DNA from: an uncultured Myxococcales bacterium
GTDB lineage: Bacteria; Myxococcota_A; Polyangia; JAAYKL01
NCBI GenBank assembly: GCA_964530995.1
Contig: CAZHCG010000003.1
Location: 915-64,914, forward strand
Length of the DNA: 64,000 nt
Reading direction: 5' to 3'
Shown here one piece after another: positions 2,989 through 33,026 of the stretch; within the stretch, counting starts at the first letter, position 1; every line of letters begins with the position of its first letter. Below the pieces are notes generated by a model, which was given only the letters and a program-made list of their open reading frames with translations, was not told the DNA's origin and did not search any database. A program made the translations under genes and the position numbers.

Positions 2989-4524
2989 CTACAGGTCAGA
3001 GGGCGGGACGTAGCGCGTGTACTCGATTCCCAGATCGCAGAACTCCGGGTCGCACCTGTCGCCCACGCGATCGACGACGAACTCGTTTTCGAGCTCCCTG
3101 GCCGGGCAGGGCTCGCGCCGGCCGTCGTGCAGAGCCTCGTACTGCTCGCGCTCGAGATCGATCGCGCCCTCGCACGAGTCGGCGAAACAGATCCGGGCCG
3201 CGGCATCGCGCCACTCCTGGGAGACGCGGACGATGCCCGCCTCGGCCGCGTCTCCGCTGCCGTAGCCCACGGTCAGAAAAGCCTTGCCGCTCAGATCCAG
3301 CTCGCGATCCAGCCCTTCTTCGAACCCGGCCGCGATCCAGGCCGGGAGCGAAGCGGTGTAGAGATTGCCCAGATCGCGCATCGCGTCCGCGCCGAGACGG
3401 ATCTTGCGCGCCTCGACCTGGCGGAACTTCTCCGTCTTGCGGAAGTGTTTGACCACATTCATCGCCTCAGGGTAGACTTCGCGGTTGATCTCCTCGCCCA
3501 GCTCGCCGTCGTGAAACAGGTCGGGATCGCCCTCGGCCTCGCGCAGCACCGCCTCCATCTCCGCGCCGCACTCGGCGCAGAGCTCGGCCAGCTCGGGATG
3601 ATGGCCCGGGTCGCGCGTCAGGCCCCAGACGTACAGCGCGGCCAGCACGTTGGCGGTCAGGCGGTGGTAGGGCCGGTGAAAGAAGGCCGCGTCCATGCGG
3701 TGGAACAGCTCGCGGGCGGTCAGCCCGATCTTGCGCAGCAGCCGGGCCACGGCGTGCAGCGCCTCGTCGGTGTAGCAGATCGTCGAGTACTTGCCGTTGA
3801 AGATCGGGTAGTCGGGAAGCCGAATCGCACCTCGGGGCGGTGCTGCGGCCAGATGACGGCCGTGCGGCTTGCGGAAGTCGACTCCGCGGTAGGCGGCCGC
3901 CGACGCCGCTTCGCGCAGGTCGACCTCGTATAGCCCGGGATGCTCCTCGACCAGCTGCGCGACCGCGCCGGCGCCCTGTGTCGGCTCCCCCGAGCTGCCC
4001 CGCTCGTACTCGGCGACGTCGGCGCTGACCGCGATCGCCCGCCGGCCGGCGCCGTCCGTGGCCAGGTAGCGCAGCGCGCCCTTGAGCGCGTAGACGCCGC
4101 CCAGGCAGGCGTGCTTCAGCTCGGGCACCTCGCAGTGGCGCGAGATGCGCGGCCGCCCCAGCCGCTCCAGGGCGCGATCGACCATCCCCTTGACGATGAT
4201 CGCTCCGGCCGAGTTGTCGCTGCTGGACTCGGTGCCCAGCGCCAGGTAGCCGACCGTGCGCGGGTCGACGTCGTAGCGCGCGATCAGGTCGAGCACGGCG
4301 CCCGCCGCCAGCGTGTACAGATTCTGGCGCGGACCGAGCACGCGAAAGCTGCGACCGACCGTGGATCGGATCTTGTCGGCCGAGGCTCCGGTCCAGTCGC
4401 ACCAGTCGTCGAGCAGCACCCGGTAGGGCGGCAGGCGCAGGGCGAAGCCGCTCACGCCGACCGGAACCGGCGAGCGCCTGGGGCGCGGAGGTGGCAGGGA
4501 ATCGATCACGCTGGGCTCCTTCAT
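2989..4524 (-). CDS. Hydroxymethylglutaryl-CoA synthase family protein (HMGS/MvaS-like, thiolase fold).
   Basis: GTESSSDNS matches the HMGS GTESxxDxSK motif. HACLGGVYAL matches the NACYGGT catalytic-Cys region. FNGKYS matches the conserved GKYS segment. At 511 aa it is longer than typical bacterial MvaS. Confidence 0.55.
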   Translation of the reverse strand: MKEPSVIDSLPPPRPRRSPVPVGVSGFALRLPPYRVLLDDWCDWTGASADKIRSTVGRSFRVLGPRQNLYTLAAGAVLDLIARYDVDPRTVGYLALGTESSSDNSAGAIIVKGMVDRALERLGRPRISRHCEVPELKHACLGGVYALKGALRYLATDGAGRRAIAVSADVAEYERGSSGEPTQGAGAVAQLVEEHPGLYEVDLREAASAAAYRGVDFRKPHGRHLAAAPPRGAIRLPDYPIFNGKYSTICYTDEALHAVARLLRKIGLTARELFHRMDAAFFHRPYHRLTANVLAALYVWGLTRDPGHHPELAELCAECGAEMEAVLREAEGDPDLFHDGELGEEINREVYPEAMNVVKHFRKTEKFRQVEARKIRLGADAMRDLGNLYTASLPAWIAAGFEEGLDRELDLSGKAFLTVGYGSGDAAEAGIVRVSQEWRDAAARICFADSCEGAIDLEREQYEALHDGRREPCPARELENEFVVDRVGDRCDPEFCDLGIEYTRYVPPSDL

Positions 4525-4687
4525 CGATGATCGTGCATCGGGCTCGTCCAGCGGACGTAGCCGCGGCTGCTCTGGGCGAGCCTGTATCCCGTCGGGGGAA
4601 AAAGATAAACCCCAAAGGCGTATCCCCGCGGGAACGGAATCGTGCTAGATTCGAGCTTCCGTACGACACTCGGCAAAGGGGAGAGCA

Positions 4688-5149
4688 ATGACGTTTCTGT
4701 TCACGTTTTTCATCGCGGCCAGCCAGGTGACGACGTTTTTCCTGTCGCTGCTGGCCCAGAATCGCGCGACCGAGGAGGCGGCCCTGGCGCTGCCGATTCC
4801 GATCCTGATCGGAACGGGGTTCTTCATCTGGATGGTGGGTTACGCCTGGAGCTCGATCCAGGACGAGCAGAGCCCGATCAGCACCGGCAAGGCGGTCGGC
4901 TTTCTGTTCATCCCGTTTTTCAATCTGTATTGGTTGTTCGTGGTGCTGCCCGGGTTCGCCACCGAGTACCGCAAGTACGCCCAGCGCCACGACCTCGACG
5001 TCAAGCCGCCCAGCAAGGGCGTGCTGATCACCTGGGCGATCCTGACGCTGGTCCAGATTCCGGTGGCCCTCTGGGTGCTGACGATCATCGGCGCGATCCA
5101 GATCGGGATGGCCGTATCCAGGCTCAAGGCCGCGCGCGGCGAGAGCTGA
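4688..5149 (+). CDS. Small integral membrane protein of unknown function (DUF4234-like).
   Basis: 153 aa with 3-4 predicted TM helices and an FIPFFNLYW motif. Local codon bias is good. The function is not assignable from sequence. Confidence 0.45.
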   Translation: MTFLFTFFIAASQVTTFFLSLLAQNRATEEAALALPIPILIGTGFFIWMVGYAWSSIQDEQSPISTGKAVGFLFIPFFNLYWLFVVLPGFATEYRKYAQRHDLDVKPPSKGVLITWAILTLVQIPVALWVLTIIGAIQIGMAVSRLKAARGES

Positions 5150-5193
5150 GCGCTCGACGCCTTCGCGACAGGCCGTCCGGATAGAGGGAAGCC

Positions 5194-5649
5194 GTGTCCG
5201 ACGAGCTCGTCGACATAGCCTGGTTCGACACCCCGATCGAGGCCCGGCTGGCCAAGATGCGGCTCGACGGGGAGGGGATACTCGCCTTCGTGATCGGAGA
5301 GCACCTGGGGGGAATGAACGTCTTCGGCTTTGCCGGCGGAGAGGGGGTGCGGATCCAGGTCAGGCCCGAGGACGCCGAGCGCGCCGCCGGGATCCTGGAG
5401 CGCGCCGCCGACGAGCGGGGCGAAGAGGCGGGCGAAGAGACCGTACCTCCGTTCGATCACGCGGACGAGGACGTGATCGACACCGGCGCGGCGGCCGCCG
5501 GCGAGCGCTGTCCGGCGTGCGGCAGCCCGCTGGTCGAGCGGCGCCGCGACCCCGAAGCCCGTGGCTGGCTTTCCCGCCTGCTGGGAAGGAGCGGCCGGGT
5601 CTGCCGGCGCTGCGGGCACAGCTGGAGAGATACGGACGACAGCGAATGA
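5194..5649 (+). CDS. Hypothetical protein: DUF2007-like N-terminal domain plus a C-terminal CxxC...CxxC zinc ribbon.
   Basis: 151 aa. The C-terminus carries CPACGSPL...CRRCGHSW. The N-terminus resembles small 'putative signal transducing' domains. Confidence 0.4.
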   Translation: MSDELVDIAWFDTPIEARLAKMRLDGEGILAFVIGEHLGGMNVFGFAGGEGVRIQVRPEDAERAAGILERAADERGEEAGEETVPPFDHADEDVIDTGAAAAGERCPACGSPLVERRRDPEARGWLSRLLGRSGRVCRRCGHSWRDTDDSE

Positions 5650-5652
5650 AAA

Positions 5653-5728
5653 CGGCGACCCCGACGGGAATCGAACCCGTGCCGCCGGCGTGAAAGGCCG
5701 GTGTCCTCACCTCTAGACGACGGGGCCT
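5653..5728 (-). tRNA. tRNA-Glu (anticodon UUC); no encoded CCA.
   Basis: The reverse complement reads GGCCCCGTCGTCTAGAGGTGAGGACACCGGCCTTTCACGCCGGCGGCACGGGTTCGATTCCCGTCGGGGTCGCC. It forms a cloverleaf with GTTCGATTC in the T-loop and CTTTCAC in the anticodon loop. Ends are hand-counted, +/-2 nt. Confidence 0.85.
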
Positions 5729-5767
5729 AGTCGCGTTTCGATCTCTTTTCAATCGCGATCGTCGCTG

Positions 5768-5841
5768 TGAGCCGTGAAGGAATCGAACCTTCGACCTACG
5801 GATTAAAAGTCCGGTGCTCTACCTAGCTGAGCTAACGGCCC
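5768..5841 (-). tRNA. tRNA-Lys (anticodon UUU).
   Basis: The reverse complement reads GGGCCGTTAGCTCAGCTAGGTAGAGCACCGGACTTTTAATCCGTAGGTCGAAGGTTCGATTCCTTCACGGCTCA. It has the D-loop AGCTCAGCTAGGTAGAGC, the anticodon loop CTTTTAA and the T-loop GGTTCGATTCC. Ends +/-2 nt. Confidence 0.85.
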
Positions 5842-6002
5842 TCCGCGCGCCGGGCGCCGCTATGTACCAAACAGAGAAGAGTAAGGCAAGCGCACCGTTG
5901 GCCGAGCACGAAATCGCTTGACAAACGACCTCTTGCCGTGGCTTTGGTATTACGTTTTTACAGAAGGTAACACAGCGATCACAGAGAAAGCGAGGTTCGA
6001 AA

Positions 6003-6512
6003 ATGAATGACATCACAGTGAAATGGATGTTGACAGTGACTTGCATGGTATTCATGGCTCATGTGACAGGTTGCGATCCCGAGGACGAAGGCTCGGCGAC
6101 CGTCCAGATCAAAAACGATTTCGACAACCCGGAGATGGACTTCCAGCCGCCGTGGACCATCTGCGAGTCCTCCTACCTCGATGTCGAGTTCGGCACCATA
6201 GACATCGGGGAGAGCAGCGCGGAGCAGGAGGTCGTCCCGGGGCTGGACTACGTCCTGATGGTCGCGGCCTGGGACGATCCCAGCTGCGCGCCCGAAAACT
6301 GCCTGCCGATCGCCAGCAAGAACGAGGAGGAGGTCGTGGACGGTCAGACGCGGACGATCGAGATCAACCTGCCCAACCACCAGGGGCCGTGTCCACCCGA
6401 GGGCGTGCAGCCCATCCCCCAGGAGCTGTACGACAGGATCCTGTCCCTGTGGCCCGATTACGGCTTCGAGCCCTACGAGCAGAAAACCGAGAACGCGCAG
6501 TGCCTCGATTGA
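6003..6512 (+). CDS. Cys-rich secreted lipoprotein, hypothetical.
   Basis: Signal peptide with lipobox (MVFMAHVTGC). Nine Cys in the mature part. GC is visibly lower (about 58%) than the background. The stop overlaps the next start (ATGA). Confidence 0.55.
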   Translation: MNDITVKWMLTVTCMVFMAHVTGCDPEDEGSATVQIKNDFDNPEMDFQPPWTICESSYLDVEFGTIDIGESSAEQEVVPGLDYVLMVAAWDDPSCAPENCLPIASKNEEEVVDGQTRTIEINLPNHQGPCPPEGVQPIPQELYDRILSLWPDYGFEPYEQKTENAQCLD

Positions 6513-7015
6513 TGTTCTCCGCGGACCCGCTCGCGAGGCTCTCGGCAAGACTGGGGTGCCGCTGGTCGCTGGCGGTGGCGCTCCTGGTCGGCGGATGCGA
6601 GCTCGCATATCCAGAGGTCGTGGTCGTCAACCGGACGAACGAGCACGTCCTGATCAAGGATGTGAGCTTCAACGGGTGCGTCTGGGACGAGGTCATCGCT
6701 TTCGAAGAGGCGACCTCTCCGGGCAGGTGTCTGCCGGGGAATGACAGAATTCACTTAAAAAAGCTCGATGCCGAGTCCTACTGCCAGGAGCAGGCAGAGG
6801 ACGGCACGCTCGACGACGTCTGTACATGCGATACCGACCAGGATCTCGACAGCGACGAAGGTATCGATACGGATCTGACGAACGAGGAGCCTAACTGGTT
6901 CAACTACCAGACGATCTCGGTCAAGCGAGTCGGCTACGGCGACTTTCACCTCTTCGAGATCACCGCGGACGACATCGAGCAGGATTTCACCGTGCCCGGA
7001 CCCTACGGGCATTGA
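6512..7015 (+). CDS. Cys-rich secreted lipoprotein, hypothetical; possibly a paralogue of the preceding gene.
   Basis: Signal peptide with lipobox (ALLVGGCEL). Contains an acidic D/E/T-rich segment. Translationally coupled to the upstream ORF. Confidence 0.55.
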   Translation: MFSADPLARLSARLGCRWSLAVALLVGGCELAYPEVVVVNRTNEHVLIKDVSFNGCVWDEVIAFEEATSPGRCLPGNDRIHLKKLDAESYCQEQAEDGTLDDVCTCDTDQDLDSDEGIDTDLTNEEPNWFNYQTISVKRVGYGDFHLFEITADDIEQDFTVPGPYGH

Positions 7016-7032
7016 GTCAGAGGTGATCCGTC

Positions 7033-8988
7033 TTGAGATCCGCGATCTCCATCGCCCTGACCATCGCCGCCGGGTTGGCAGATGCATCGCCCGCGCGCGC
7101 CGAGGACCCCGCCGACGCCGGCGTGCCGTCGGCGACCGGCGATCAGCCGCTCGACAGTGATGCAGGGGCGCAAGGCGACGCAGATGCAGACCAGCCGAGC
7201 TTCCCGGCAGACTTCCCGGTCGTCGATCGCGCCTACGAGACGACAGTCAGCGCCAGGCGGCCGATCGCGCGAGACCGCACCCAGGACGATTTCGAGGTCG
7301 CCGGCGAACACTTGAGGGACAGCGTTCGAGCCAGCACGCTCGAGGCCCTCTCCCAGGAGAACGCGGGCATATACGTGCCGGGACGCGGCTCGTTTCACGG
7401 TGTGGCCAACGGCGCGACCGGCGGCATCTACATCCGGGGCCTGGGCGGAAGCCCCAACACGCAGGTGCTGGTCGTCGAGGACGGCGTCCCGGATTACATG
7501 GGGATCTTCGGCCATCCGATCCCGGATGCGTACGTTCCTTTTCTGATCGACGAGGCGCTGGTGATCAAGGGCGGCGACTCGGTGCTGTACGGCAGCAACG
7601 CGATGGGCGGCGTGGTGGCGCTGCGCAACCGCTGGCGCGATGCGGAGGGATTCGAGATCCTCAACGACGCGGCCTACGGCAGCTACTCGACCGTGCGGGA
7701 GACGGCCTCGCTGCTCGGCAGGACGGGGGACCTGGACCTGGCGGGGGCGTTTCACGCGGTCAGCACGGAGGGGCACAGAGACGGGGCCGGGGGGAACGAG
7801 ATCGTCGGTCACCTGGCCGCCCGCTACCGCTTCGAACCCGGGCTCAGGCTCACCGCGCGAAACAAGGTCGTCCACCTGGAGGGAACCGACCCGGGCCCGG
7901 TGACTCACCCCCATACCGGGCACTGGTACGACGTGTGGAGAAACAACACGTCGCTTCGGCTCGAGTGGAAACGCGATCCGATGCGCCTGACCGTCACCCC
8001 GTTCTTCAACCTCGGAGTCCACCGCCTCTACGACGGCTTCTTCTCCCGGGACCATCTCGCGGGCGGCAACGCCGAGATCGATCTCAGGCTCCATTCGACG
8101 ACCCGGCTCCTGCTCGGGCTCGGCGGTCAGCACGTGGACGGACGGGTGGAAAACCGCGCCGAAGAAGAGCGCACGCCGGTGCAGGGGCTTACCGACCTGT
8201 CGGCCTACGGGCAGATCACATTCCGGCCCGTTTCGCAGCTGTCGATCGTCGCCGGCGCCCGCTTCCTCAACAGCCTCACCTACGGACCCGTGCTACTGTA
8301 CAAGGGCGGCGCCCGCTGGGACGTCTACCGGGGTCTCTACGCCCGCACGCGGATCGCCCGCAACTTCCGCCAGCCGACGATCCGCGAGCTCTACCTGCCG
8401 TTTCCGACGGCAAATCCGGATCTGCGTCCCGAATACTCGCTGAACTGGGACTTCGGCCTGGGTTACGAGGCCGAGCACTTCGAGGTCTCGTGCAGCGGCT
8501 ATCGCACCCAGTCGGACGACATGATCCGGTACTTCGGCGCCTGGCCCACGGCGGAGGTGGTCAACATCGACAACATCGTCATATGGGGCGTCGAGGGGCG
8601 AGCGGGCGTACGTCGTCTCGGACCGATCTCGATGTTCGTCAGCGGCGACTGGCGGGACGTGGGTCGATACACGCGCCAGAACCCGCAGGCCAAGCTCGAC
8701 TTCACCCTCGAGGCGAGTCACGAGTTCACCCCGCACTTCGTCGGCGGCAGCCTGACCGGAGAGTGGGTTCACGGGCTCTACATGTCCAACTACGGCCGCG
8801 ACCCGCTCGACGACCCCTTTGCCATGAATCTGGCCTTCCGCTACCGCTACACCTCTTCGGAGCGGGGATTCACCCTCGAGCCCTACCTCTTCTTGCGCAA
8901 CTTTCTCGACAGACGCTACGCCTTCGTCGAGGGTTATCCCATGCCCGGCTTCCACGTTCTCGCCGGGTTGAAGGTGGGGCTGATATGA
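7033..8988 (+). CDS. TonB-dependent outer-membrane receptor, short BtuB-like class (651 aa).
   Basis: Signal peptide; a TonB-box-like ETTVSARRP; a plug domain reading NAGIYVPGRG...GGIYIRGLGGSPNTQVLVVEDGVPDYMGIF...VIKGGDSVLYGSNAMGGVVAL; and a long beta-barrel. The overall pattern resembles BtuB. It ends in Ile rather than the usual aromatic residue. Confidence 0.8.
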   Translation: MRSAISIALTIAAGLADASPARAEDPADAGVPSATGDQPLDSDAGAQGDADADQPSFPADFPVVDRAYETTVSARRPIARDRTQDDFEVAGEHLRDSVRASTLEALSQENAGIYVPGRGSFHGVANGATGGIYIRGLGGSPNTQVLVVEDGVPDYMGIFGHPIPDAYVPFLIDEALVIKGGDSVLYGSNAMGGVVALRNRWRDAEGFEILNDAAYGSYSTVRETASLLGRTGDLDLAGAFHAVSTEGHRDGAGGNEIVGHLAARYRFEPGLRLTARNKVVHLEGTDPGPVTHPHTGHWYDVWRNNTSLRLEWKRDPMRLTVTPFFNLGVHRLYDGFFSRDHLAGGNAEIDLRLHSTTRLLLGLGGQHVDGRVENRAEEERTPVQGLTDLSAYGQITFRPVSQLSIVAGARFLNSLTYGPVLLYKGGARWDVYRGLYARTRIARNFRQPTIRELYLPFPTANPDLRPEYSLNWDFGLGYEAEHFEVSCSGYRTQSDDMIRYFGAWPTAEVVNIDNIVIWGVEGRAGVRRLGPISMFVSGDWRDVGRYTRQNPQAKLDFTLEASHEFTPHFVGGSLTGEWVHGLYMSNYGRDPLDDPFAMNLAFRYRYTSSERGFTLEPYLFLRNFLDRRYAFVEGYPMPGFHVLAGLKVGLI

Positions 8989-9536
8989 GAGTGCGCCTTT
9001 CGGCTCGCGAGCTGGCCTTCTGCGGGGTGTTCGGAGCGGCTGCGCTGCTGCTCCCGGTGATCTTCCACGTGCTGCACCTGGGGCACATCTTCATGCCGAT
9101 GTACCTGCCGCTGGTGGCGTTGGCGTACTTCGTGCGCCCGCTGGCTGCGGCGTCGACCGCGATCGTCGCACCGCCGTTGTCCGGAGCGGTAACCGGGATG
9201 CCACCTTTCTTTCCGCCTGTGGCTGTCTTCATGTCGCTGGAGCTGGCCGCGATGGCTGCGCTGATCTCCTGGACGTGCACGCGCTGGCCTCGGGTCAACG
9301 AGTGGCTAGTGCTCATCCCGGCGCTGATCCTGGGAAGAGCGCTCTACGTCGGGCTCGTCTATCTCTTTTCTCTCTTCATCGATCTGCCCGCCGGCTTCAT
9401 GGCGGGTTTGTCGTTCCTGAGCGGCTGGCCGGGGATCGTCCTGATGGTCGCGGTGGTGCCGGTCATCGCCAGGACCAGCAGGCCCGCCAGGCGGCGCGTG
9501 GCGCGCTCGGGGAAAGGAGTCGCGAATGAGCACTGA
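8985..9536 (+). CDS. Small polytopic membrane protein (183 aa), candidate ECF-transporter substrate-capture (S) component.
   Basis: 5-6 predicted TM helices. The start overlaps the TBDR stop (ATATGA). It is followed by EcfT and EcfA homologues in overlapping reading frames. No family-specific motif was recognised by eye. Confidence 0.45.
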   Translation: MRVRLSARELAFCGVFGAAALLLPVIFHVLHLGHIFMPMYLPLVALAYFVRPLAAASTAIVAPPLSGAVTGMPPFFPPVAVFMSLELAAMAALISWTCTRWPRVNEWLVLIPALILGRALYVGLVYLFSLFIDLPAGFMAGLSFLSGWPGIVLMVAVVPVIARTSRPARRRVARSGKGVANEH

Positions 9537-10143
9537 AGCGAAAGTGGAGTTCTTCGATGGGATTGCTGAAAAGTGGGACGATTGGGAGGACCTGGAGGTC
9601 GTGGCCGGAAGGCTGTCGCGCGGCCTCGACGAGCTGGGAGTCACCTCCAAAGAGATCGTCGCCGACGTGGGCTGCGGTACGGGGAACCTGACCCGCGCCC
9701 TGCTGGACAGGCTCTCACGCGACGGGCGCGTGGTGGCGATCGATATCTCCTTTGCGATGGTCGCAAAGGCACGCCAGAAGGTTGCGGATCCCCGGGTCGA
9801 GTGGCACGTGGGCGACGCGACGCGCATCCCCATCGACGAGAGCTCCGTGGATCGGGTCATCTGCTTCTCGGTCTGGCCGCACTTCGATGATCCCGACGCG
9901 GTGATCGACGAGATCGACAGAATCCTTCGTCCCCGCGGCGTGCTGCACGTCTGGCACCTTTCCTCTCGCGCGACCGTCAACGAGATTCACGCCTCGGCCG
10001 GCGAGGCGGTGGCAAACGACGTGCTCGTCCCCGCCGTACGGACTGCGCGGACGCTGGAGGAGCACGGTTTCCGTCCTTACGAGGTCGTCGACGACGGAGA
10101 GCGGTACCTCGTGTCGGCGAAAAGAGCATCGCGAAATCGATGA
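9526..10143 (+). CDS. Class I SAM-dependent methyltransferase (UbiE/COQ5-like fold).
   Basis: Motif I VADVGCGTGNLT; FFDGIAEKWD at the N-terminus; an acidic motif II (VVAIDIS) and motif III (LRPRGVL). Overlaps the upstream gene by 11 nt and the downstream gene by 4 nt. Confidence 0.75.
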   Translation: MSTEAKVEFFDGIAEKWDDWEDLEVVAGRLSRGLDELGVTSKEIVADVGCGTGNLTRALLDRLSRDGRVVAIDISFAMVAKARQKVADPRVEWHVGDATRIPIDESSVDRVICFSVWPHFDDPDAVIDEIDRILRPRGVLHVWHLSSRATVNEIHASAGEAVANDVLVPAVRTARTLEEHGFRPYEVVDDGERYLVSAKRASRNR

Positions 10144-10895
10144 GGACGTCCTGGCACGACATCTGGGGCAGCGCGCGCGGTCCGGTCAAGAGACTCGTCC
10201 CGCAGGCGCGGCTCATCTGCGGCGTGTCGGTCTTCGCGAACTGCATGGTCGCTCCTGCGACACGCTGGGAAGGCGCGGTCGCGATCACGCTCGTGGTCGT
10301 CGCCTGGACCGCTTTGGTTGGGCCGCCCGTTCCGGTTCTCCGATCGACCCTGCTCCTCGGGCTCGCCCTGTTTCTTCCCTACTTCCTCCTCGTCCCGCTG
10401 ATCCGCGACCCGTCGGCCGGCAGGGGCTGGATGGAAGCTCTCACCGTGTCCTGGAACGTGTTCTTTCGCGGTGTGACCGCCATGCTAACGTCGGTCTGCA
10501 CGGCGAGCGCGCTGTCGGCAAGCGCGTTGCGACAAGGGATGAGCCGTCTCCCGGTCCCCGGTGTCCTTGCGGCGGTGCTGATCCAGATCGTGCACCAGGC
10601 TACGAGCCTGGTCTACGAAACTCGCCAGATCGCCTCGGCCATCGCCGTGCGCAGCGGAACGACCGGCTACCGAACCGGTCTACGGGTGCTGGCTTCGCTG
10701 CCCCGGGTCTGGTTGCCGCGAGTGGTGGAGCGGACCGAGCGGGTCGGCGCCGCCATGGAGCTGCGCGGCTACTGCGAACGGGATCCGGGTGATCTGGGAT
10801 CTCTCCCCATCGCCTGGAGGGATCGCTCGGCGATCGGCCTGGCCCTGGCGACCGTGGCCGGGGCCGCGGCGCTCCGCGTCTGGAGAGGGTTCTGA
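10140..10895 (+). CDS. Energy-coupling factor transporter transmembrane (T) component, CbiQ/EcfT family.
   Basis: 251 aa with about 5 TM helices. Arg-containing coupling-helix-like segments (ETRQIASAIAVRSG, MELRGY). Positioned immediately before an EcfA-type ATPase with a 1-nt overlap. Confidence 0.6.
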   Translation: MRTSWHDIWGSARGPVKRLVPQARLICGVSVFANCMVAPATRWEGAVAITLVVVAWTALVGPPVPVLRSTLLLGLALFLPYFLLVPLIRDPSAGRGWMEALTVSWNVFFRGVTAMLTSVCTASALSASALRQGMSRLPVPGVLAAVLIQIVHQATSLVYETRQIASAIAVRSGTTGYRTGLRVLASLPRVWLPRVVERTERVGAAMELRGYCERDPGDLGSLPIAWRDRSAIGLALATVAGAAALRVWRGF

Positions 10896-11587
10896 TGCCG
10901 GAGGCGTTGCGTTGCGCGAAGATCACGGTACGGTACGAGCCGGATGCGGCTCCGACGCTCTCCGACGTCTCCTTCTCCGTGGAGGAGGGCGAGCGCGTGG
11001 CGCTGGTCGGGCTCAACGGAACGGGCAAGACCACGCTCCTCATGTCGCTCGTCGGTCTCGTACCCCATGCAGGAGAAATCGAAATCTGCGGGAAAACGCT
11101 CGACCGCCGGAACGTCGGCGAGATCCGTCGCAAGATCGGGTTCCTGTTCAACGTGCCCGAGGACCAGCTCCTCTTTCCCACGGCGATCGAGGACGTCGCC
11201 TTCGGCCTTCTCCAGGCGGGGAGGAGCCGGGGAGAGTCGTTCGAGCTGGCGGAAGATGCCCTGGAGAGATTCGGTATCGGCACACTCGGGAATACGCCAC
11301 TGCATCACCTGTCCCACGGTCAGAAGCAACGGGTCGCGCTGGCCGGCGCGCTGGTTACCGAGCCCCCGTTGCTCCTGTTGGACGAGCCGACCGCCGGCCT
11401 CGATCCTCCCGGCAAGCTCGAGCTGGCGGAGTTGCTCTGCGCGCAGACCTCTGCCCAGCTGATCGCCACCCACGACCTGGACTTCGCCGATCGGGTCTGC
11501 TCGCGCATCGCTCTGATCGAGGGAGGGACTGTCGCCGAGTCGTCCGTGGGCACAACGGAAATTCGATCCCGTTGGAAGTTGGTGTGA
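10895..11587 (+). CDS. ABC/ECF transporter ATP-binding protein (EcfA/CbiO-like).
   Basis: Walker A GLNGTGKTT; Q-loop; ABC signature LSHGQKQRVALAGAL; Walker B LLLLDEP; H-loop ATHD. Confidence 0.85.
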   Translation: MPEALRCAKITVRYEPDAAPTLSDVSFSVEEGERVALVGLNGTGKTTLLMSLVGLVPHAGEIEICGKTLDRRNVGEIRRKIGFLFNVPEDQLLFPTAIEDVAFGLLQAGRSRGESFELAEDALERFGIGTLGNTPLHHLSHGQKQRVALAGALVTEPPLLLLDEPTAGLDPPGKLELAELLCAQTSAQLIATHDLDFADRVCSRIALIEGGTVAESSVGTTEIRSRWKLV

Positions 11588-11654
11588 GCACCTTTCGAAG
11601 CGCTTGCCCCATATCCGCGATCCTGGAGATTCGGAAAGTTGACGAGAAACCGGG

Positions 11655-12776
11655 CTAGGAGATTTGCAGATCTTCTCCCGGGGCCAGCCAGCTCGCGATG
11701 AAAGCGTCGAGGTCGCCGGCGGCGATCGCTTCTCTGGCGCCGCGCATCATCTCTCCGTAGTGGTGCAGGTTGTGCACGCTCATCAAGCGCGCGGCGAGCA
11801 TCTCTCCGGCCAGGTAGAGGTGGCGCAGGTAGCGGCGATCGAAGCGCCTGCAGCAGGGACACTCGCAGGCGGGGTCGAGGGGCAGCGGATCCTCGGCCCA
11901 GCGGGCCTGCTTGATGTTGATCCTCCCGCCGCGGACGAACACCTGGCCGTTGCGCGCGTTGCGGGTCGGCATCACGCAGTCGAACATGTCGATCCCCGAG
12001 CGCACCGCCGCCAGGATGTCCTCGGGCCCGCCGACGCCCATCAGGTAGCGCGGGCGCTCGGCGGGCATACGGTGCGCGACCGCCTCGAGCACGCGGTACA
12101 TCTCCTCGGTCGGCTCGCCGACCGACAGCCCTCCCAGCGCCAGACCCTCGAACGGCAGGGCGGACAGCTCTTCGATCTGAGCCAGCCGCAGGTCCTCGTG
12201 CGTACCCCCCTGCGCGATCCCGAACAGCGCCTGCCCGGCGGGACGCTCGACCTCCAGCGCGCGCCGCGCCCAGGCCGCGGTGCGATCCGCGGCGCGCGCC
12301 AGCCGCTCGCGGTCCGCCTCTCCCGGCGGGCACTCGTCGAGCGCCATCGCGATGTCGGATCCCAGGGCGCCCTGGATCTCGATCGCCCGCCTTGGAGTCA
12401 GCTCGATCCGCGTCCCGTCTATGTGCGAGGAAAAGACCACGCCGTTGTCGTCGATCCGGACCCGCTCGCCGAGGCTGAAGACCTGGAAGCCGCCCGAGTC
12501 GGTCAGCGTCGGCCCTTCCCATCCCATGAAGCGCGCCAGCCCGCCGGCGCGGCGGATCAGCTCCGGGCCGGGGCGCAGCAACAGGTGGTAGGTGTTGCCC
12601 AGCACGATCGAGGCGCCGCTGGCCCGCACCTCGTCGGGGTCGAGCGCCTTGACCGCGGCTCGGGTTCCGACCGGCATGAACACCGGGGTCGGCGATCGGC
12701 CTTGCGGCGTGCGCAGCGTGCCGCGCCGGGCCCGGCCGTCTACCGCCTCGACCGAGAACGAGAAGCCGTCGCTCAT
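11655..12776 (-). CDS. tgt: tRNA-guanine transglycosylase (queuine tRNA-ribosyltransferase).
   Basis: TPVFMPVGT; LGNTYHL; TDSGGFQVFSL; zinc site CECPCC...H; MPTRNARNG. The start was chosen at MSDGFSF (374 aa). The 434-aa ORF extension upstream is Arg/Ala-rich and atypical. Confidence 0.9.
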   Translation of the reverse strand: MSDGFSFSVEAVDGRARRGTLRTPQGRSPTPVFMPVGTRAAVKALDPDEVRASGASIVLGNTYHLLLRPGPELIRRAGGLARFMGWEGPTLTDSGGFQVFSLGERVRIDDNGVVFSSHIDGTRIELTPRRAIEIQGALGSDIAMALDECPPGEADRERLARAADRTAAWARRALEVERPAGQALFGIAQGGTHEDLRLAQIEELSALPFEGLALGGLSVGEPTEEMYRVLEAVAHRMPAERPRYLMGVGGPEDILAAVRSGIDMFDCVMPTRNARNGQVFVRGGRINIKQARWAEDPLPLDPACECPCCRRFDRRYLRHLYLAGEMLAARLMSVHNLHHYGEMMRGAREAIAAGDLDAFIASWLAPGEDLQIS

Positions 12777-13828
12777 CTCCCGCTTCCTTTCCGCGGCAGC
12801 ACCAGCATCGCGTCTCCGTAGCTGTAGAAGCGAAACCGCTCTCGCACCGCGCGGTGGTAGGCCTCCAGCAGGCGCTCGCGTCCGGCCAGCGCGGCCACCA
12901 GGCACAGCAGGGTCGAGCGCGGCAGGTGGAAGTTGGTCAGCAGACCGTCGACCACGCAAAAATCGAACGGCGGCGCGATGAACAGCTCGGTGAAGCCGCG
13001 ACCCGCCTCGAGCCGGCCGTTCTCCAGCGCCAGTCCTTCCAGCGCGCGGACCACGGTCGTGCCGACCGCGATCACCGCACGGCCCTCGTCCCGCGCGCGC
13101 CGGATCGCGGCCGCCTCCCTCGCGCCGACGCTGTAGGCCTCGGCGTCCATGCGGTGGTCCTCGATCTCGTCGGTCGCGATCGGCCGGAAGGTCCCGGGTC
13201 CCACGTGCAGGGTGACGAACACGACCTCGTGCCCGCCGCGGGAGATCTCCTCCAGCAGCTCGGAGCTGAGGTGCAGGCCGGCCGTGGGCGCGGCCACCGA
13301 GCCGTCCTCGCGGGCGAAGACCGTCTGGTAGCGCTGCCGGTCGTCCCGCTCCGGCGCGCGCCGGATGTAGGGGGGGAGCGGAACCTCGCCGCGCCGCTCG
13401 ACGCGCCGGCGGAAGACCGCGGCTCCTTCTCCGATCTCCAGCGTCAGGTAGCCGTCCTCCGAGCGCCCGACGACCTCGCTCTCTGCACCGGCGAGGTCGA
13501 TCCTGTCTCCGGAACGCAGGGAACGATTCGCACGCGCCATAGCTCGCCAGCGACAGCTGTTCGCGCCCGCCTCCAGCTCCCGCACCAGCAGCACCTCTAC
13601 CGCGCCGCCGCTGGGACGCCGCGCGCGCAGGCGGGCGGGGATCACGCGGCTGTCGTTGGCCACCAGCAACGCCCCGTCGGGCAGCAGCGCCGGCAGATCG
13701 GAGATTCGCGCCAGCAGCTCGCCCCCTTGCGGCGGAAGCACCATCAACCGTCCGCCGTCGCGCCGCGCCGAAGGACGCTGGGCGATCAGCTCGCCGGGGA
13801 GATCGTAGTCGAAAAGAGGGGTTCTCAC
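12773..13828 (-). CDS. queA: S-adenosylmethionine:tRNA ribosyltransferase-isomerase.
   Basis: FDYDLPGELIAQRP at the N-terminus; GEVPLPPYIRR; the TFxxxHLPRSTL-type segment FHLPRSTLLCLV. A GTG start is proposed at 13828. The stop overlaps the tgt start by 4 nt. Confidence 0.88.
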   Translation of the reverse strand: MRTPLFDYDLPGELIAQRPSARRDGGRLMVLPPQGGELLARISDLPALLPDGALLVANDSRVIPARLRARRPSGGAVEVLLVRELEAGANSCRWRAMARANRSLRSGDRIDLAGAESEVVGRSEDGYLTLEIGEGAAVFRRRVERRGEVPLPPYIRRAPERDDRQRYQTVFAREDGSVAAPTAGLHLSSELLEEISRGGHEVVFVTLHVGPGTFRPIATDEIEDHRMDAEAYSVGAREAAAIRRARDEGRAVIAVGTTVVRALEGLALENGRLEAGRGFTELFIAPPFDFCVVDGLLTNFHLPRSTLLCLVAALAGRERLLEAYHRAVRERFRFYSYGDAMLVLPRKGSGR

Positions 13829-15900
13829 TTGACGGTGATCTGGTAGGGAGCCATCAGCGTCGACTCGGCCGGTCGATCCATCAGCTGGACACGCCTGATC
13901 GCCTTCAGGACGAAGCAGACGGGACCGGGGCCCTCCGGAATCGCGGCGGTCAGCCCCTGGCCGGTTCCCTGCTCCTCGACGACTCGCTCCTCGTTCCAGG
14001 GGCCCAGCAGAAAGCCGAGCCGGATCTGCACATCCGGGATCGGAGTGACCGTCACCGAGCTCGCCCGGGCGCTGGCCGGCAGGCAGTACCAGTCGGTGTC
14101 GGAGAAGACCTCGATTATGCCGTTCTTGGTCGCGCCGACCCGGATCGGACTGGCCTGGGCACGAGTGTCGTTGGGCTCTGTTTCGAAGAACTCGGGTGCA
14201 TAGGTCTGGTACGAAACCGCGTAAGCCGCCCCGGCGAAGCTGCTGGGCGGCACGCCGGGACGGCGCATCTCCTGCACCAGCAGGTAGACCTCCGGAATCT
14301 CGACTCGCAGCGGCGGGATCGACTCGCCGCCCCCCTGGCCGTTTCCGTCGACCCGCGCCAGCGGATCCTCCTGCGACGGATCGACCAGCTGCAGGCCGAG
14401 GTCGAGACCGGGCACGCCGCTCACGTCGACCTGCAGCCCCCACGCTCCCTGCGCGGGATCCGGCGAGCTCAGCCTGTACCAGTCGACGTCTTGACGGCCG
14501 TCGGGCTTGGAGATCGTACCGGTCAGCCGGATTCCCGCCGCGAGCGGATCCGCCGTCGCCGGGGAGTCGTTGGGCTCGGTCTCGGCGTTCGCCAGGCTGT
14601 CGTCGGCGCCGTGGACGAACAGCGCCCAGTAGGCGCAGGCGGCGATCGCGGCCGCGGCCAGCAGCGAGAGGGACACGGCGGTGACGACGCGCTTGCGTCT
14701 CAGGCGTTTTTCGAAGTGGATCACGTCCTCGCGGGTTCCCAGCGTCACCTCGCGGGCGCCGACGGTGACCGTCGAGGGTCGAGTGCTCCGCCGCGACTGC
14801 GCTTCGGCTTCGACCGCGACCGATGGCGCCGGGAACTGCGTGACCGGAGTCGCCTCGTCGGCGGCCTCCACCCTTTCCGCCGCCTCGCCAGCGCTCGGGA
14901 TTCCGTCTCCCACCGAGAGCCGCTGGTGCCGGGATTCCGGGTCGAGGCGCACGGACAGCTCCGCCATCTCCCGGCGCATCTCCTCGGCGGAGGCGTAGCG
15001 CTCCTCGGGCGTCTTGGCCATCGCACGCAGCACGATCCGGTCGGCCTCGGACGGGATCTTTCGCTGGGGAAAGCACTGGGAGGGAGGGTCGATCTTCTCG
15101 GTGAGGTGCTTGGTCAGCACGCCCATCGGCGTGTCGGCGGAGAACGGCGTCTCGCCGGTCAGCAGCTTGTACATCACAGCTCCCAGCGAGTAGACGTCCG
15201 AGCGCGCGTCGACCCCATCGCCGCGGATGTGCTCGGGCGCCATGTAGTACGGCGTGCCGACCAGGTTCCCCTCCTTGGTGATCTTGGTCGCCTCCCGCAC
15301 GTCGCGCAGCTTGGCCAGCCCGAAGTCGAGCACCTTGACGAAGTCCGGGTAGTCGTACTGCTGGGAGACCAGGATGTTCTCGGGCTTGATGTCGCGGTGG
15401 ACTATCCCCTTGTCGTGGGCCTCGATCAGAGCCGAGCAGGTCTGGACCAGCACGTGGGCGACCCGCGCCGCAGGCATCGGGCCCTCTAAGCGCAGCACCT
15501 CGGCCAGGTCCCGGCCCTCGATGTACTCCATCACCAGGTACATCATTCCCTGGTGGGAGCCGAAGTCGAAGACCGAGACGGTGTTGAGGTGGGTCAGGCG
15601 GCTGACGGCCTCGGCCTCGAGGCGAAACCTCTTGGCGACCTCCTGGTCCTGGCCGAGCTCCCCGTGGAGGAGCTTCATCGCCATGACCTTGCCCATCTTG
15701 ACGTGCTCGACGCGGTAGACCGCCCCCATCCCTCCCCTGCCGATCAGGTCGACCAAGCGGTAGCGATCATCGATAACGACGCCGATCAACGGGTCCGCCG
15801 CGCGCGCGGGGGCGCCCTCGGTCGCCAGCCGCGTCCCGCAGGTTCCGCAGAACGCTACCGGCTCGTCGTAGGTCGCGTGGCAGTTGGGACATTCCACCAA
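13825..15900 (-). CDS. Membrane Ser/Thr protein kinase: N-terminal zinc ribbon, Hanks-type kinase domain, one TM helix, and two extracellular PPC-like (ETEPND...DWY) repeats.
   Basis: CPNCHATY..CGTCG ribbon. Kinase motifs GRGGMGAVY, AMK, HRDIKPEN, DFG and APE. TM segment VVTAVSLSLLAAAAIAACAYWALFV. Two repeats beginning TEPND and ending DWY. Its 5' end overlaps the queA GTG start by 4 nt. Confidence 0.85.
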   Translation of the reverse strand: MVECPNCHATYDEPVAFCGTCGTRLATEGAPARAADPLIGVVIDDRYRLVDLIGRGGMGAVYRVEHVKMGKVMAMKLLHGELGQDQEVAKRFRLEAEAVSRLTHLNTVSVFDFGSHQGMMYLVMEYIEGRDLAEVLRLEGPMPAARVAHVLVQTCSALIEAHDKGIVHRDIKPENILVSQQYDYPDFVKVLDFGLAKLRDVREATKITKEGNLVGTPYYMAPEHIRGDGVDARSDVYSLGAVMYKLLTGETPFSADTPMGVLTKHLTEKIDPPSQCFPQRKIPSEADRIVLRAMAKTPEERYASAEEMRREMAELSVRLDPESRHQRLSVGDGIPSAGEAAERVEAADEATPVTQFPAPSVAVEAEAQSRRSTRPSTVTVGAREVTLGTREDVIHFEKRLRRKRVVTAVSLSLLAAAAIAACAYWALFVHGADDSLANAETEPNDSPATADPLAAGIRLTGTISKPDGRQDVDWYRLSSPDPAQGAWGLQVDVSGVPGLDLGLQLVDPSQEDPLARVDGNGQGGGESIPPLRVEIPEVYLLVQEMRRPGVPPSSFAGAAYAVSYQTYAPEFFETEPNDTRAQASPIRVGATKNGIIEVFSDTDWYCLPASARASSVTVTPIPDVQIRLGFLLGPWNEERVVEEQGTGQGLTAAIPEGPGPVCFVLKAIRRVQLMDRPAESTLMAPYQITVK

Positions 15901-15937: not shown

Positions 15938-17911
15938 TCAACGCCTGCGCCGTTTTTTCTTCTCGTCGTCCTCGCTGAGCAGCACGTAGGCGGCGTCGAC
16001 GGCCGGCATGGTCTCCTTTTCGCCCCCGCGGAGCTCCACGCCCCGCTTGCCCTTGACCGTACCGTAGACGTCGACCTGCGATTGCAGTCCGGCCCGGGTC
16101 TCGCCGCGGAACGTGACGTACACGGCGCAGCGCGCCCCGGCGGGACAGCCCTCGCCGATGTAGAGCAGCATCGCGGTCACGCCTTTTTCCGTGCTCATGT
16201 TGACCACTCTGCCGCTTAGCACGACCTTCTTGCCGGTGTGCAGGTCGGGATCGCGGGCGATGGTCGGATAATCCAGCTTGCGATTCGCGTCCTCGGCCCA
16301 TTCCTCGACGGCACCGTCGAGGCTCTCAACCCGCGTGACCTCGATTCGACGCTCGCGGGGCGCCTTCTCCGGGGCGCGCGCCTCGACCTCGATCACGTGC
16401 TCGCCGAACTCGTCGAGCGGCACGCTGGTGCTGAAGCGGGTCGCGGTCACGGCCGCGGGCTCGCCGTTGACCGTGACCCGGGCGCCCTCCTCGGTCGCGC
16501 CGGCACAGGTCACCTCTTCCATCTCGACCACGGCGCCGTCGGTCGGCCGGTCGATCTGGAGCCTGGCCAGCGGAATCGCCACCACGTGCTGTCCCTGCTC
16601 GGTGGTCCCGTCCGGACCGGTAAGCTGGAACGGGATCCTCTCGATCAAATTGTCTCCCTCGGAGTTCTCTGCTCCCTCGAGCCTGGACAGCGGAACGCGC
16701 AGCTCGAAGGCGCCGTTTACCAGCTTGGCCTTCTGCCCACCCACGGCCAGCTCGTTGCCCGGGGCGACCTGGAAGGCGACCTCGAAGTACGGCTCGGCCG
16801 TGGTCAGCCCGGACAGGTCGGTCGCGACGGTATGACGCAGCACGACCGGGAAGCTCAGCTTCTCCGGCGCGCCGCCGGGCTCGACGTAGCTCACCTGGAC
16901 GTTGTTCTCTCCCAGCGACAGCTCGCTCATCGGCAGGTCGAACCTGGCCTGTCCGGAGACGACCGGGACCTGCTCGCCCCGGACCTGGACCGCGGCGCCG
17001 TCGGGGGCGTCGGGGATCGGCAGCACCACGGTCAGGCTCTCCCCGTCGGCGCTGGGAAAGACCTGGGGCCTGCCGCCGCCCGAGTCGGCGAACACCAGCA
17101 GGTAGATCAGCGCCGCCAGCCCGGCGACGACGACGATCCCTCCCACGATCAACGCCACCAGCACGCCGGAGCCCTTGCCAGCGGGCGCGGGCTCGTCTTC
17201 GTCCCAGTCGTCCATTCCCGCCGGCTGGGGAGCGCTGCGCTGCGCGGGCTCGAGCGGCTCGGTCGCGGATCTCCTCCTGGCCTCCTGCCGGGAGAGATCC
17301 TCATCGGAAGGAGCTTGGATGTCGTCCAGGGTCGGCGTCTCGTTGGGATCGGGCGAAGCCGGTGCTGGCCCTCCGGAGGGTTTCGGCGACCCCGGTGCGG
17401 GTTCTGCGGAAGATTGTGACGCCACCTGCTTTGCGGCTTGCCGCCCGGAGTCTCCCCCGCCCGCCTGCTTCGGATCCTCCCCGGTCACTGCGGGCATGCC
17501 CAACACGGTCCGCTTGTCGCGAGCAGAGCCGCCGCCGGCCGGCGCTTGCTGCGAGGGCTGCTGTCCGCTCGGCTTCGCGACCGGAGCCGGCTCGGCGACC
17601 GGAGCCGGCTCGGACGGCTGCTGCTGCGCGCCCGCGGCCGGCACGCCGAGCATCGTCTTGGCCGGGGCCTTCTTCGGCTGCTGAGCCGGCTGGGCGGGCT
17701 GGGCGGGCTGAGCGGGCCTGGCGGTGGGAGGCGCTTGCTGCTGCGCGCCCGCGGCCGGCACGCCGAGCATCGTCTTGGCCGGGGCCTTCTTCTTCTCGGG
17801 CTCGCGGCGCGCCGGCTGACCCTGATCACCGGAGAGAGGGCTGCCGCACGCCGAGCAGAACTGCTCACCGTCCTTGTTCTGCGTCCCGCACATCTTGCAA
17901 GTCAACGGCAC
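15938..17911 (-). CDS. Zinc-ribbon membrane/surface protein, hypothetical (657 aa).
   Basis: N-terminal double CxxC ribbon (CKMCGT..CSACGS). A duplicated KKKAPAKTMLGVPAAGAQQQ motif. A Pro/Ala/Gln-rich linker. One TM helix. A roughly 380-aa beta-rich ectodomain. Ends 37 nt upstream of the kinase gene. Confidence 0.6.
   Translation of the reverse strand: MPLTCKMCGTQNKDGEQFCSACGSPLSGDQGQPARREPEKKKAPAKTMLGVPAAGAQQQAPPTARPAQPAQPAQPAQQPKKAPAKTMLGVPAAGAQQQPSEPAPVAEPAPVAKPSGQQPSQQAPAGGGSARDKRTVLGMPAVTGEDPKQAGGGDSGRQAAKQVASQSSAEPAPGSPKPSGGPAPASPDPNETPTLDDIQAPSDEDLSRQEARRRSATEPLEPAQRSAPQPAGMDDWDEDEPAPAGKGSGVLVALIVGGIVVVAGLAALIYLLVFADSGGGRPQVFPSADGESLTVVLPIPDAPDGAAVQVRGEQVPVVSGQARFDLPMSELSLGENNVQVSYVEPGGAPEKLSFPVVLRHTVATDLSGLTTAEPYFEVAFQVAPGNELAVGGQKAKLVNGAFELRVPLSRLEGAENSEGDNLIERIPFQLTGPDGTTEQGQHVVAIPLARLQIDRPTDGAVVEMEEVTCAGATEEGARVTVNGEPAAVTATRFSTSVPLDEFGEHVIEVEARAPEKAPRERRIEVTRVESLDGAVEEWAEDANRKLDYPTIARDPDLHTGKKVVLSGRVVNMSTEKGVTAMLLYIGEGCPAGARCAVYVTFRGETRAGLQSQVDVYGTVKGKRGVELRGGEKETMPAVDAAYVLLSEDDEKKKRRRR
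17621..17792. repeat. Two identical 55-bp direct repeats (17621-17675 and 17738-17792), separated by a GGGCTGGGC x3 micro-tandem, inside the zinc-ribbon protein gene.
   Basis: The sequence ctgctgcgcgcccgcggccggcacgccgagcatcgtcttggccggggccttcttc occurs twice. It encodes the duplicated ...KKAPAKTMLGVPAAGAQQQ peptide. The intervening ctgggcgggctgggcgggctg encodes PAQPAQPAQ. Confidence 0.8.
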
Positions 17912-22533: not shown

Positions 22534-22629
22534 CTCGAGCGAGCGCGCATGGGGCGCGATCTGCGTGCTTGAACGGGCGCGGCCCTGTTGCTAGGGTCCG
22601 CTGACTATCACAGCGGCCGAAAGACGAAC

Positions 22630-28477: not shown

Positions 28478-28481
28478 CGGA

Positions 28482-29417: not shown

Positions 29418-29479
29418 CGCTCGTCGTCCTCCTCCGCGCTGGCGAGGGACGGAATGGTACCACCGTTCCTCCGCCCGGT

Positions 29480-30433: not shown

Positions 30434-30436
30434 TTC

Positions 30437-32260: not shown

Positions 32261-32326
32261 GCACCGTTTGTGCAACGCGCCCGGCGGCGAGTCAAACGCA
32301 ACCGATCGCGCGAGGCGGACGCACGG

Positions 32327-32875: not shown

Positions 32876-33026
32876 GGCATCCCCTCCTCGCGCCAGCTGG
32901 CGCACAGTTGTTCGCTGGGGCATTCGCCCCGAGAACCGTGACAGCTTCCAGTTCACGTTTGCCAACGATTATGCGCGAAACTTTCCAGGGACACAACAAG
33001 CCGTTCCGGAATTTCGCCCGGCCCTC

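Follow-up and report, generated by a model that had tools for sequence, protein, structure and literature searches.

Here, we describe a seven-gene operon on a 64,000-nucleotide (nt) stretch of DNA from an uncultured Myxococcales bacterium (GenBank assembly GCA_964530995.1, contig CAZHCG010000003.1, positions 915 to 64,914; in the following, this whole stretch is called the window). The operon encodes two small lipoproteins (lipo1, lipo2), a TonB-dependent outer-membrane receptor (TBDR), the S, T and A components of an energy-coupling factor (ECF) importer and a class I S-adenosylmethionine (SAM)-dependent methyltransferase (MT). Our data directly support an operon under predicted NikR control in which a TBDR and lipoproteins of the outer membrane are coupled to an ECF importer of the inner membrane, with the methyltransferase as a subunit of the importer. 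With a probability of roughly 60%, we read the system as a route for the uptake of nickel, or of a nickel chelate, across two membranes, in which methylation is directed at the cargo.

Predicted NikR operator and neighbouring nikR genes

Upstream of the operon (30 nt before the ATG of lipo1), we found a box of the sequence GTATTAC-N13-GTAACAC. It has the same form as a published predicted NikR site and fits the consensus of this operator in delta-proteobacteria (GTGTTAC-[N13/14]-GTAACAC), which was derived from nikMNQO promoters (Rodionov et al., 2004; PMC545781). The box is the sole match in the 64 kb, and no match was obtained in 100 shuffles. A second NikR-like site (42615-42641, GTGTTAC-N13-GGAAAAC) carries two mismatches in one half-site and probably reflects chance. 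When we inspected the related loci (L numbers in the following), boxes at the equivalent position were present in L001, L006, L018, L021, L022, L032, L036, L051, L072 and others. Perfect boxes were seen, for example, in L021, L022, L036, L056, L069 and L072, and L088 has a variant box. Altogether, 13 non-redundant sites with at most one mismatch were counted in 1.34 Mb (window plus related loci), where about 0.4 would be expected according to our own estimate for uniform composition. Each of the 13 sites maps to the 5' end either of the operon or of a nikR gene next to it.

Open reading frames (ORFs) were clustered across the related loci to find recurrent neighbours. Here, we found that, besides the seven genes, only one neighbour recurs, a protein of about 138 amino acids whose gene, in 28-30 loci, comes immediately before the operon or, on the opposite strand, immediately after it. 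Four representatives were tested against the NikR equivalog model NF003381 (cut-off 105 bits) and scored 176-189 bits, which identifies the gene as nikR. It flanks the operon in 29 of the 81 non-redundant loci on which all our gene-order counts are based (smaller denominators below refer to the loci with enough flanking sequence), and these nikR-flanked loci come from Myxococcota, Acidobacteriota, Aminicenantes, Verrucomicrobiota, Kiritimatiellia, Lentisphaerae, Ignavibacteriota and Fibrobacterota. In 27-28 of 28 flanking NikR homologues the four high-affinity nickel ligands are kept, which we take to be H76, H87, H89 and C95 (E. coli NikR numbering). Taken together, the operator sequences and the neighbouring nikR genes directly support the predicted NikR control of the operon. 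An earlier first-pass annotation, made from the letters of this DNA, had overlooked both the operator and the nikR genes beside the operon in 29/81 relatives.

Gene organization and conservation of the operon

The seven genes (Table 1) are densely packed, and start and stop codons overlap at five junctions. The lipo1/lipo2 and T/A junctions are 1-nt overlaps (TGATG), TBDR/S and MT/T share an ATGA, and S and MT overlap by 11 nt. Between lipo2 and the TBDR there is a gap of 17 nt, and the receptor gene begins with TTG behind a GAGGTGA ribosome-binding site. On identical metagenome contigs, independent gene calls gave the same seven products (169, 167, 651, 183, 205, 251 and 230 amino acids), so that the cluster of overlapping genes drawn in the first-pass annotation was recovered gene by gene. 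The regulatory region comprises the 161 nt between tRNA-Lys and lipo1. Scanning the operon region for sigma-70 promoters revealed no consensus promoter, and such a scan is not informative for this taxon. It is directly supported that the seven genes constitute one transcription unit behind the NikR-type operator. At its other end, the operon stops 67 nt from tgt-queA. The two were said to stand head-to-head, which is wrong: tgt-queA is convergent (tail to tail) with the operon.

Table 1. Coordinates of the operon, its predicted operator and the adjacent genes in the window
Feature	Position	Strand	Assignment
tRNA-Glu(TTC)	5654-5727	minus	upstream of the operon
tRNA-Lys(TTT)	5767-5841	minus	directly upstream of the operon
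predicted NikR operator	5947-5973	no strand	GTATTAC-N13-GTAACAC
lipo1	6003-6512	+	lipoprotein, 169 amino acids; lipobox VTGC
lipo2	6512-7015	+	lipoprotein, 167 amino acids; lipobox VGGC
TBDR	7033-8988	+	TonB-dependent outer-membrane receptor, 651 amino acids; TTG start
S	8985-9536	+	predicted ECF S component, unclassified family, 183 amino acids, six helices
MT	9526-10143	+	predicted class I SAM-dependent methyltransferase, 205 amino acids
EcfT/CbiQ	10140-10895	+	ECF T component, CbiQ family, 251 amino acids
EcfA/CbiO	10895-11587	+	ECF A component, CbiO-type ABC ATPase, 230 amino acids
tgt	11655-12776	minus	Pfam/NCBIfam TGT
queA	12773-13828	minus	Pfam/NCBIfam QueA

The S family comprises 859 homologues in a protein collection clustered at 90% identity. 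It occurs in at least 356 species-representative genomes of more than a dozen phyla, and 31 representatives of 50%-identity clusters were matched at E ≤ 1e-30. The labels of the best 80 genomic loci include Myxococcota/Polyangia, Bdellovibrionota, Acidobacteriota, Aminicenantes, Planctomycetota, Verrucomicrobiota, Kiritimatiellia, Lentisphaerae, Ignavibacteriota, Fibrobacterota, Eisenbacteria and Raymondbacteria. Two loci are labelled 'uncultured Eubacteriales' (L025) and 'uncultured Bifidobacteriales' (L073) despite a TBDR or a diderm-type context. L073 carries lipo1-lipo2-TBDR, and both labels look mis-binned or mislabelled.

The order S-MT-T-A is colinear in 68 of the 73 loci with enough downstream flank, with MT between S and T in each of them. 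Two further loci have S-T-A without MT, so that S-(MT)-T-A is colinear in 70/73. A TBDR lies directly upstream of S in 48/64 loci (38 times a member of the window TBDR family, 10 times a member of another TBDR family), and lipo1 plus lipo2 precede the TBDR in 33/60. With these frequencies, the arrangement is not due to chance.

The methyltransferase and its fusions with the S component

The MT was matched by the Pfam families Methyltransf_11/25 (Methyltransf_11 at 89.5 bits). Its best NCBIfam match, the DVU_1556 family (NF045667), scored 74.8 bits at a cut-off of 155, which leaves the protein outside this family, and comparison with PDB and NCBIfam sequences retrieved generic class I relatives only, which gave no hint of what the enzyme methylates. 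The SAM motif (D47-x-GCGTG and D73) is conserved, and so are W17, D18, C113, W117-P-H119, H144, R148, N152, H155 and Y194, which are specific for this family. We place the protein in a subfamily of its own among the class I SAM methyltransferases, and retention of the SAM motif together with the family-specific positions points to a functional enzyme that acts on a defined substrate.

In several lineages S and MT are encoded by a single ORF. Such S::MT fusions of 388-398 amino acids were found in L009 (9989-11155), L020 (1257-2432) and L055 (9971-11167). The metagenome contig L088 contains another one (about 1659-2825), which is open from MDGSMKYRLS... to ...ERHAGK*, and a fifth is present in L089 (1-1023). 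All five lie on Acidobacteriota or Aminicenantes-type contigs. The fusions of L009 and L088 have a common linker that has diverged and yet stays in-frame, and this excludes a sequencing artefact. When ten longer representatives of 50%-identity clusters that the S profile had matched were scanned, five (P0361, P0374, P0386, P0392, P0469) turned out to be S::MT fusions, some of which belong to distant S branches. In L035, MT and T look fused, but we attribute this to a frameshift in a long-read assembly: past 'HANAG' the sequence no longer follows the MT family, and the A gene is broken, too.

The C-terminus of S components is cytoplasmic according to the established topology of this fold, and MT is fused there, which would place the enzyme at the inner face of S. 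The natural fusions in several lineages directly support the conclusion that MT is a conserved subunit or partner of the ECF transporter and would thus be a physical part of the complex. To our knowledge, no ECF system is known that has a conserved, sometimes fused, methyltransferase subunit. Some distant matches of the S profile are fused to other cytoplasmic domains, namely an ABC ATPase (P0382, P0384), TM1506/DUF1893 (P0465) and FmdE (P0506), and S components of this part of the superfamily seem to have been fused to cytoplasmic partners repeatedly. Next to S::MT-T-A in L088 (4609-8825, minus strand) there are heterodisulfide-reductase-like genes encoding a CCG domain, 4Fe-4S ferredoxin domains, a thioredoxin-like protein and pyridine-nucleotide disulfide oxidoreductases, and because of these genes the L088 host is likely to be an anaerobe.

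The ECF importer

The S protein of the window has the six-helix fold of S components. This fold is nearest to vitamin-type S components and less near to the ion-binding CbiM. The best conserved motifs, H28..LGHxFMPMY, TGMPPF(F/Y)PP and LPAGF, are rich in His and Met and lie in three predicted outward loops. In known S components, the three outward loops cover the binding pocket. Helix 1 contains a motif of small residues (A11-x-C13-G14-x-x-G17-A18), and S of L030 has Gly in place of the otherwise invariant Cys13. S matches no curated family of Pfam or NCBIfam, and searches of the PDB with the single sequence and with the profile gave nothing useful. Neither the window protein nor any of 28 family members matched PF01891 (CbiM/NikM).

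The T component was recognized by the CbiQ model PF02361 (47.2 bits, cut-off 25), and a phmmer comparison with the PDB gave no match. Two arginines, R171 (AVRSG) and R209 (ELRG), which we placed in the coupling helices by motif context and not by structural alignment, are kept in at least 95% of 75 homologues. For the A component we obtained 113 bits with ABC_tran. Its top NCBIfam matches were cbiO (TIGR01166, 159.9 bits) and ECF ATPase models, all of them under the equivalog cut-offs. Walker A, LSGG, Walker B (D163-E164) and the H-loop (H193) are conserved. There is a single ATPase gene in the operon, and the ATPase is therefore presumably a homodimer. On these grounds S-T-A is classified, by prediction, as a dedicated (group I) ECF importer whose S family is not yet curated. 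The earlier proposal of an ECF-type importer with one ATPase, a TBDR, lipoproteins and an embedded SAM methyltransferase was thus borne out: S has the S-component fold, T keeps its coupling-helix arginines and the gene order is conserved.

The outer-membrane module

Both lipoproteins carry a lipobox and conserved cysteines, in line with the two small Cys-rich lipoproteins of the first-pass annotation. The lipo1 protein has the lipobox Cys24, three more conserved Cys and the motif NHQGPCPPEG, of which HQGPCPPEG is invariant. Its predicted fold is a generic beta-sandwich with C-terminal helices. In lipo2, the lipobox cysteine is Cys29, the middle part is acidic and the C-terminus (EQDF..PGPYGH-COOH) is invariant. 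Neither protein matched a curated family of Pfam or NCBIfam, and sequence similarity between the two was undetectable. In 33/60 loci lipo2 is found together with lipo1 and a TBDR of the same family, and lipo1 belongs to an outer-membrane module with the TBDR and lipo2.

The TBDR has a signal peptide, a TonB-box-like sequence (ETTVSA), a plug with the conserved motif VEDGVPDYMGIFGHPIPD and a barrel of the 22-strand type. Pfam matches were Plug (47.2 bits) and TonB_dep_Rec_b-barrel (76 bits). The receptor scored far under the cut-off of every TBDR subfamily in NCBIfam, and the nearest PDB sequences were matched at E = 1.6e-7 at best. In L001, a 78%-identical relative labelled Bdellovibrionota, genes for ExbB-ExbD-TonB (10683-12359) lie directly 3' of the operon, where the window has tgt-queA. 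This position is consistent with exbB-exbD-tonB of L001 being a dedicated TonB system for the receptor.

Proposed mechanism

The NikR operator and the neighbouring nikR genes suggest nickel as cargo, and the metal is probably taken up as a small organic complex. Four features point to such a complex: a TonB-energised receptor is used, S is structurally nearer to vitamin-type S components than to CbiM, the conserved motifs in the outward loops of S are rich in His and Met, and a catalytically intact MT is nearly always retained. Under this reading, NikR would be expected to shut the operon off when nickel is sufficient. The TBDR and the two lipoproteins would carry out the outer-membrane step, the lipoproteins either capturing the cargo at the cell surface and the TBDR or handing it over and shuttling it in the periplasm, and S, T and A would carry out the inner-membrane step. 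S would deliver the cargo to the cytoplasmic face, where the attached MT may methylate the carrier ligand or a co-imported group. Methylation might then set the nickel free, or else leave the carrier trapped or inactive, so that import would become effectively irreversible. Within the nickel reading, this chelate-methylation step is the weakest part. In the boldest version, this would be the first ECF transporter to have an enzyme built in: MT, docked on S or fused to it, would methylate a nickel carrier on its arrival in the cytoplasm in a process resembling group translocation, which would imply an environmental nickelophore. This version is put forward tentatively and is rather doubtful.

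Several observations weigh against nickel uptake with methylation of the cargo. The box before lipo1 is a sequence prediction with one mismatch to the consensus, a recognizable NikR box was found in only about 20 related loci, and nikR is nearby in only about a third of them. The 64-kb window contains no nikR gene, so that the regulator would have to be encoded elsewhere in the genome, and no nickel enzyme was found among the checked genes of the window. Within the operon there are no nickel-binding motifs of known type and no NikN/CbiN- or NikK/L-like genes or His-rich tails. The N-terminus of S is not conserved and lacks the N-terminal MH motif of NikM/CbiM. Metallophore biosynthesis or export genes do not recur in the operon neighbourhoods, and a chelate cargo would therefore need an outside source. 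MT is absent from three loci (L012, L013, L049). All of the best 80 loci come from metagenome-assembled genomes. Moreover, NikR regulons may include nickel-sparing functions (PMC545781). Thus, nickel is assigned from the regulatory context, and all evidence is computational.

Alternative explanations

Alternatively, free Ni2+ (or Ni2+/Co2+) might be imported, and MT might be a docking or chaperone-like subunit or a regulator that does not act on the cargo. NikR control would fit this reading, and T and A are of the CbiQ/CbiO type that Ni/Co ECF systems use. FrpB4 and NikMNQO are thought to move the bare nickel ion. Metal ligands could be provided by the His, Cys and Met residues that are conserved in the loops of S, and by C113, H119, H144 and H155 of MT. 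The three loci that do without MT and the lack of recurrent metallophore genes nearby would also be accounted for. The four features listed above as pointing to an organic complex speak for a carrier, and we regard import of the bare ion as unlikely.

A nickel-sparing role, in which the operon is derepressed at low nickel and another micronutrient or cofactor is imported and methylated on entry, is less probable still. Predicted NikR sites precede the Ni-independent Fe-only hydrogenase of D. desulfuricans (PMC545781), the S fold is nearest to vitamin-type S components, and an MT with conserved catalytic motifs is present. However, NikR-controlled importers of the TBDR or ABC type carry nickel in nearly all cases described (see, for example, PMC2667541), and no substitute pathway is linked to the operon in the 81 loci.

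For salvage of a corrinoid or of cobalt, which the first-pass annotation had suggested in its corrinoid form from a BtuB-like plug, the odds are very low. The TBDR is weakly and partially similar to BtuB and haem-receptor models, and it matches the Bacteroides BtuB sequence 8p98 at E = 7.9e-6. MT weakly matches the corrinoid-protein-associated methyltransferase CpaM, and B12-carrying S components have precedents in BtuM and CbrT (PMC6072759). When we compared the TBDR with the BtuB equivalogs, it obtained 61.7 bits with TIGR01779 (cut-off 599.7) and 53.4 bits with NF007926 (cut-off 836). These scores amount to about a tenth of the cut-offs or less and place the receptor outside BtuB, so that 'BtuB-like' reflects generic similarity among short TBDRs. 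Riboswitch searches pointed in the same direction. Rfam in E-value mode detected the two tRNAs and no riboswitch, preQ1 and cobalamin included, between 4500 and 14500 of the window. In gathering mode, no riboswitch was found before the operon in 14 related loci, and the only two cobalamin riboswitches detected in them are both in L030. There, the operon adjoins a riboswitch-controlled BtuB-like gene: the tandem riboswitches (7772-7943 and 8466-8651) lie on the minus strand with genes at 5635-7740 and 3500-5611, which encode a BtuB-like TBDR and a long protein that looks like a periplasmic B12-binding protein with one more domain at its C-terminus. As regulators of the operon these riboswitches were rejected, since, being on the opposite strand, they control the divergent genes. 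The regulator that was found is NikR and not a B12 element.

Salvage of a queuosine precursor for the adjacent tgt-queA, likewise suggested by the first-pass annotation, is effectively refuted because the linkage is unconserved: although the operon is 67 nt from tgt-queA in the window and the genes are also neighbours in L006, a 92%-identical relative, this is the only such case among 81 loci (the order TBDR-S-MT-T-A is itself conserved), the orientation is convergent, neither the window S nor any of 28 family members matches QueT (PF06177), there is no preQ1 riboswitch, and QueA and Tgt are housekeeping proteins present with or without salvage. The link between operon and queuosine genes is thus local, and the system is not of the QueT/QrtT type.

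Relation to known transport systems

With NikMNQO and CbiMNQO, which are group I ECF transporters for Ni2+/Co2+, the system shares a dedicated operon, a CbiQ-type T component, a single CbiO-type ATPase and an association with nickel. As in NikMNQO of delta-proteobacteria, a predicted NikR operator of the same consensus is located at the promoter (PMC545781). It differs from NikMNQO/CbiMNQO in its S component, which is not PF01891 and has no N-terminal metal-binding motif, and in the lack of NikN/CbiN or NikK/L. In Helicobacter, FrpB4 and FecA3 are NikR-regulated outer-membrane TBDRs, which implies TonB-energised acquisition of nickel, and the inner-membrane step is performed there by NixA or NiuBDE and not by an ECF transporter. 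An outer-membrane TBDR under NikR control, predicted in our case, is common to both, whereas a conserved lipoprotein pair and a methyltransferase have no counterpart in Helicobacter.

The nearest precedent for pairing an S-fold protein with a TBDR in diderm bacteria is, by analogy, BtuM with BtuB, where a solitary B12 transporter of the inner membrane with the S-component fold is genetically coupled to a TBDR (PMC6072759). BtuM also modifies its cargo chemically, by decyanation, and so sets an example of an S component with a coupled reaction (PMC6072759). Small lipoproteins that are encoded just upstream of a TBDR and co-inherited with it are also known from BtuB-BtuG/BtuH of Bacteroidota (PMC10404256), and this analogy suggests a ligand-capture or lid function for lipo1 and lipo2. 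As judged from the profile comparisons, the system is like NikMNQO combined with a NikR-regulated TBDR and stands outside the Nik/CbiM, BtuB and QueT/QrtT families. Full-text literature searches found no published description of it, and it is not described in a survey of the S-component fold (PMC11109136). We rate as new the S family and the integrated enzyme in an ECF/TBDR nickel importer, and the importer type as known.

Other features of the window

A Ser/Thr protein kinase (13825-15900, minus strand) overlaps the start of queA by 4 nt, and kinase, queA and tgt may therefore form one operon. The kinase and the protein encoded next to it (15938-17911, minus strand) both start with a zinc-ribbon-like CxxC...CxxC, and the latter contains tandem KKAPAKTMLGVPAAGAQQQ repeats together with Pro/Ala-rich sequence of low complexity. 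Between 34319 and 40351 (minus strand) there is a histidine biosynthesis cluster with fused genes. One of its ORFs (551 amino acids) combines His_biosynth, PRA-CH and PRA-PH (HisA/F-type fused to HisIE), and in another one (579 amino acids) an aminotransferase is joined to a HAD phosphatase. These fused genes are adjoined by IGPD, HisG and a glutamine amidotransferase. Four ORFs of 801, 319, 333 and 1091 amino acids have no Pfam match at E ≤ 1e-5 despite good coding statistics. They lie in 22588-24993 (+), 27518-29483 (-) and 29666-32941 (+), and the ORF of 1091 amino acids has a third-position GC content of 0.76, which is lower than that of its neighbours.

Biological implications

Enzymes that are central to anaerobic metabolism, such as hydrogenases, CO dehydrogenase and urease, depend on nickel, and for most uncultured diderm phyla we know of no established route of nickel acquisition. 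If our reading is true, the operon would encode a nickel importer of a fourth kind, in addition to NikABCDE, NikMNQO and NiCoT, with a TBDR and an ECF module linked in one operon. It would be the first case offered of an enzyme as a conserved, sometimes fused, subunit of an ECF transporter. Correction of the labels 'UbiE/menaquinone methyltransferase' and 'hypothetical protein' would affect several hundred proteins. In the boldest version, many uncultured anaerobic diderm lineages would use an environmental nickel chelate that is captured outside the cell by the lipoprotein pair and the TBDR. The system also makes it possible to test directly in what chemical form nickel enters cells of anoxic environments.

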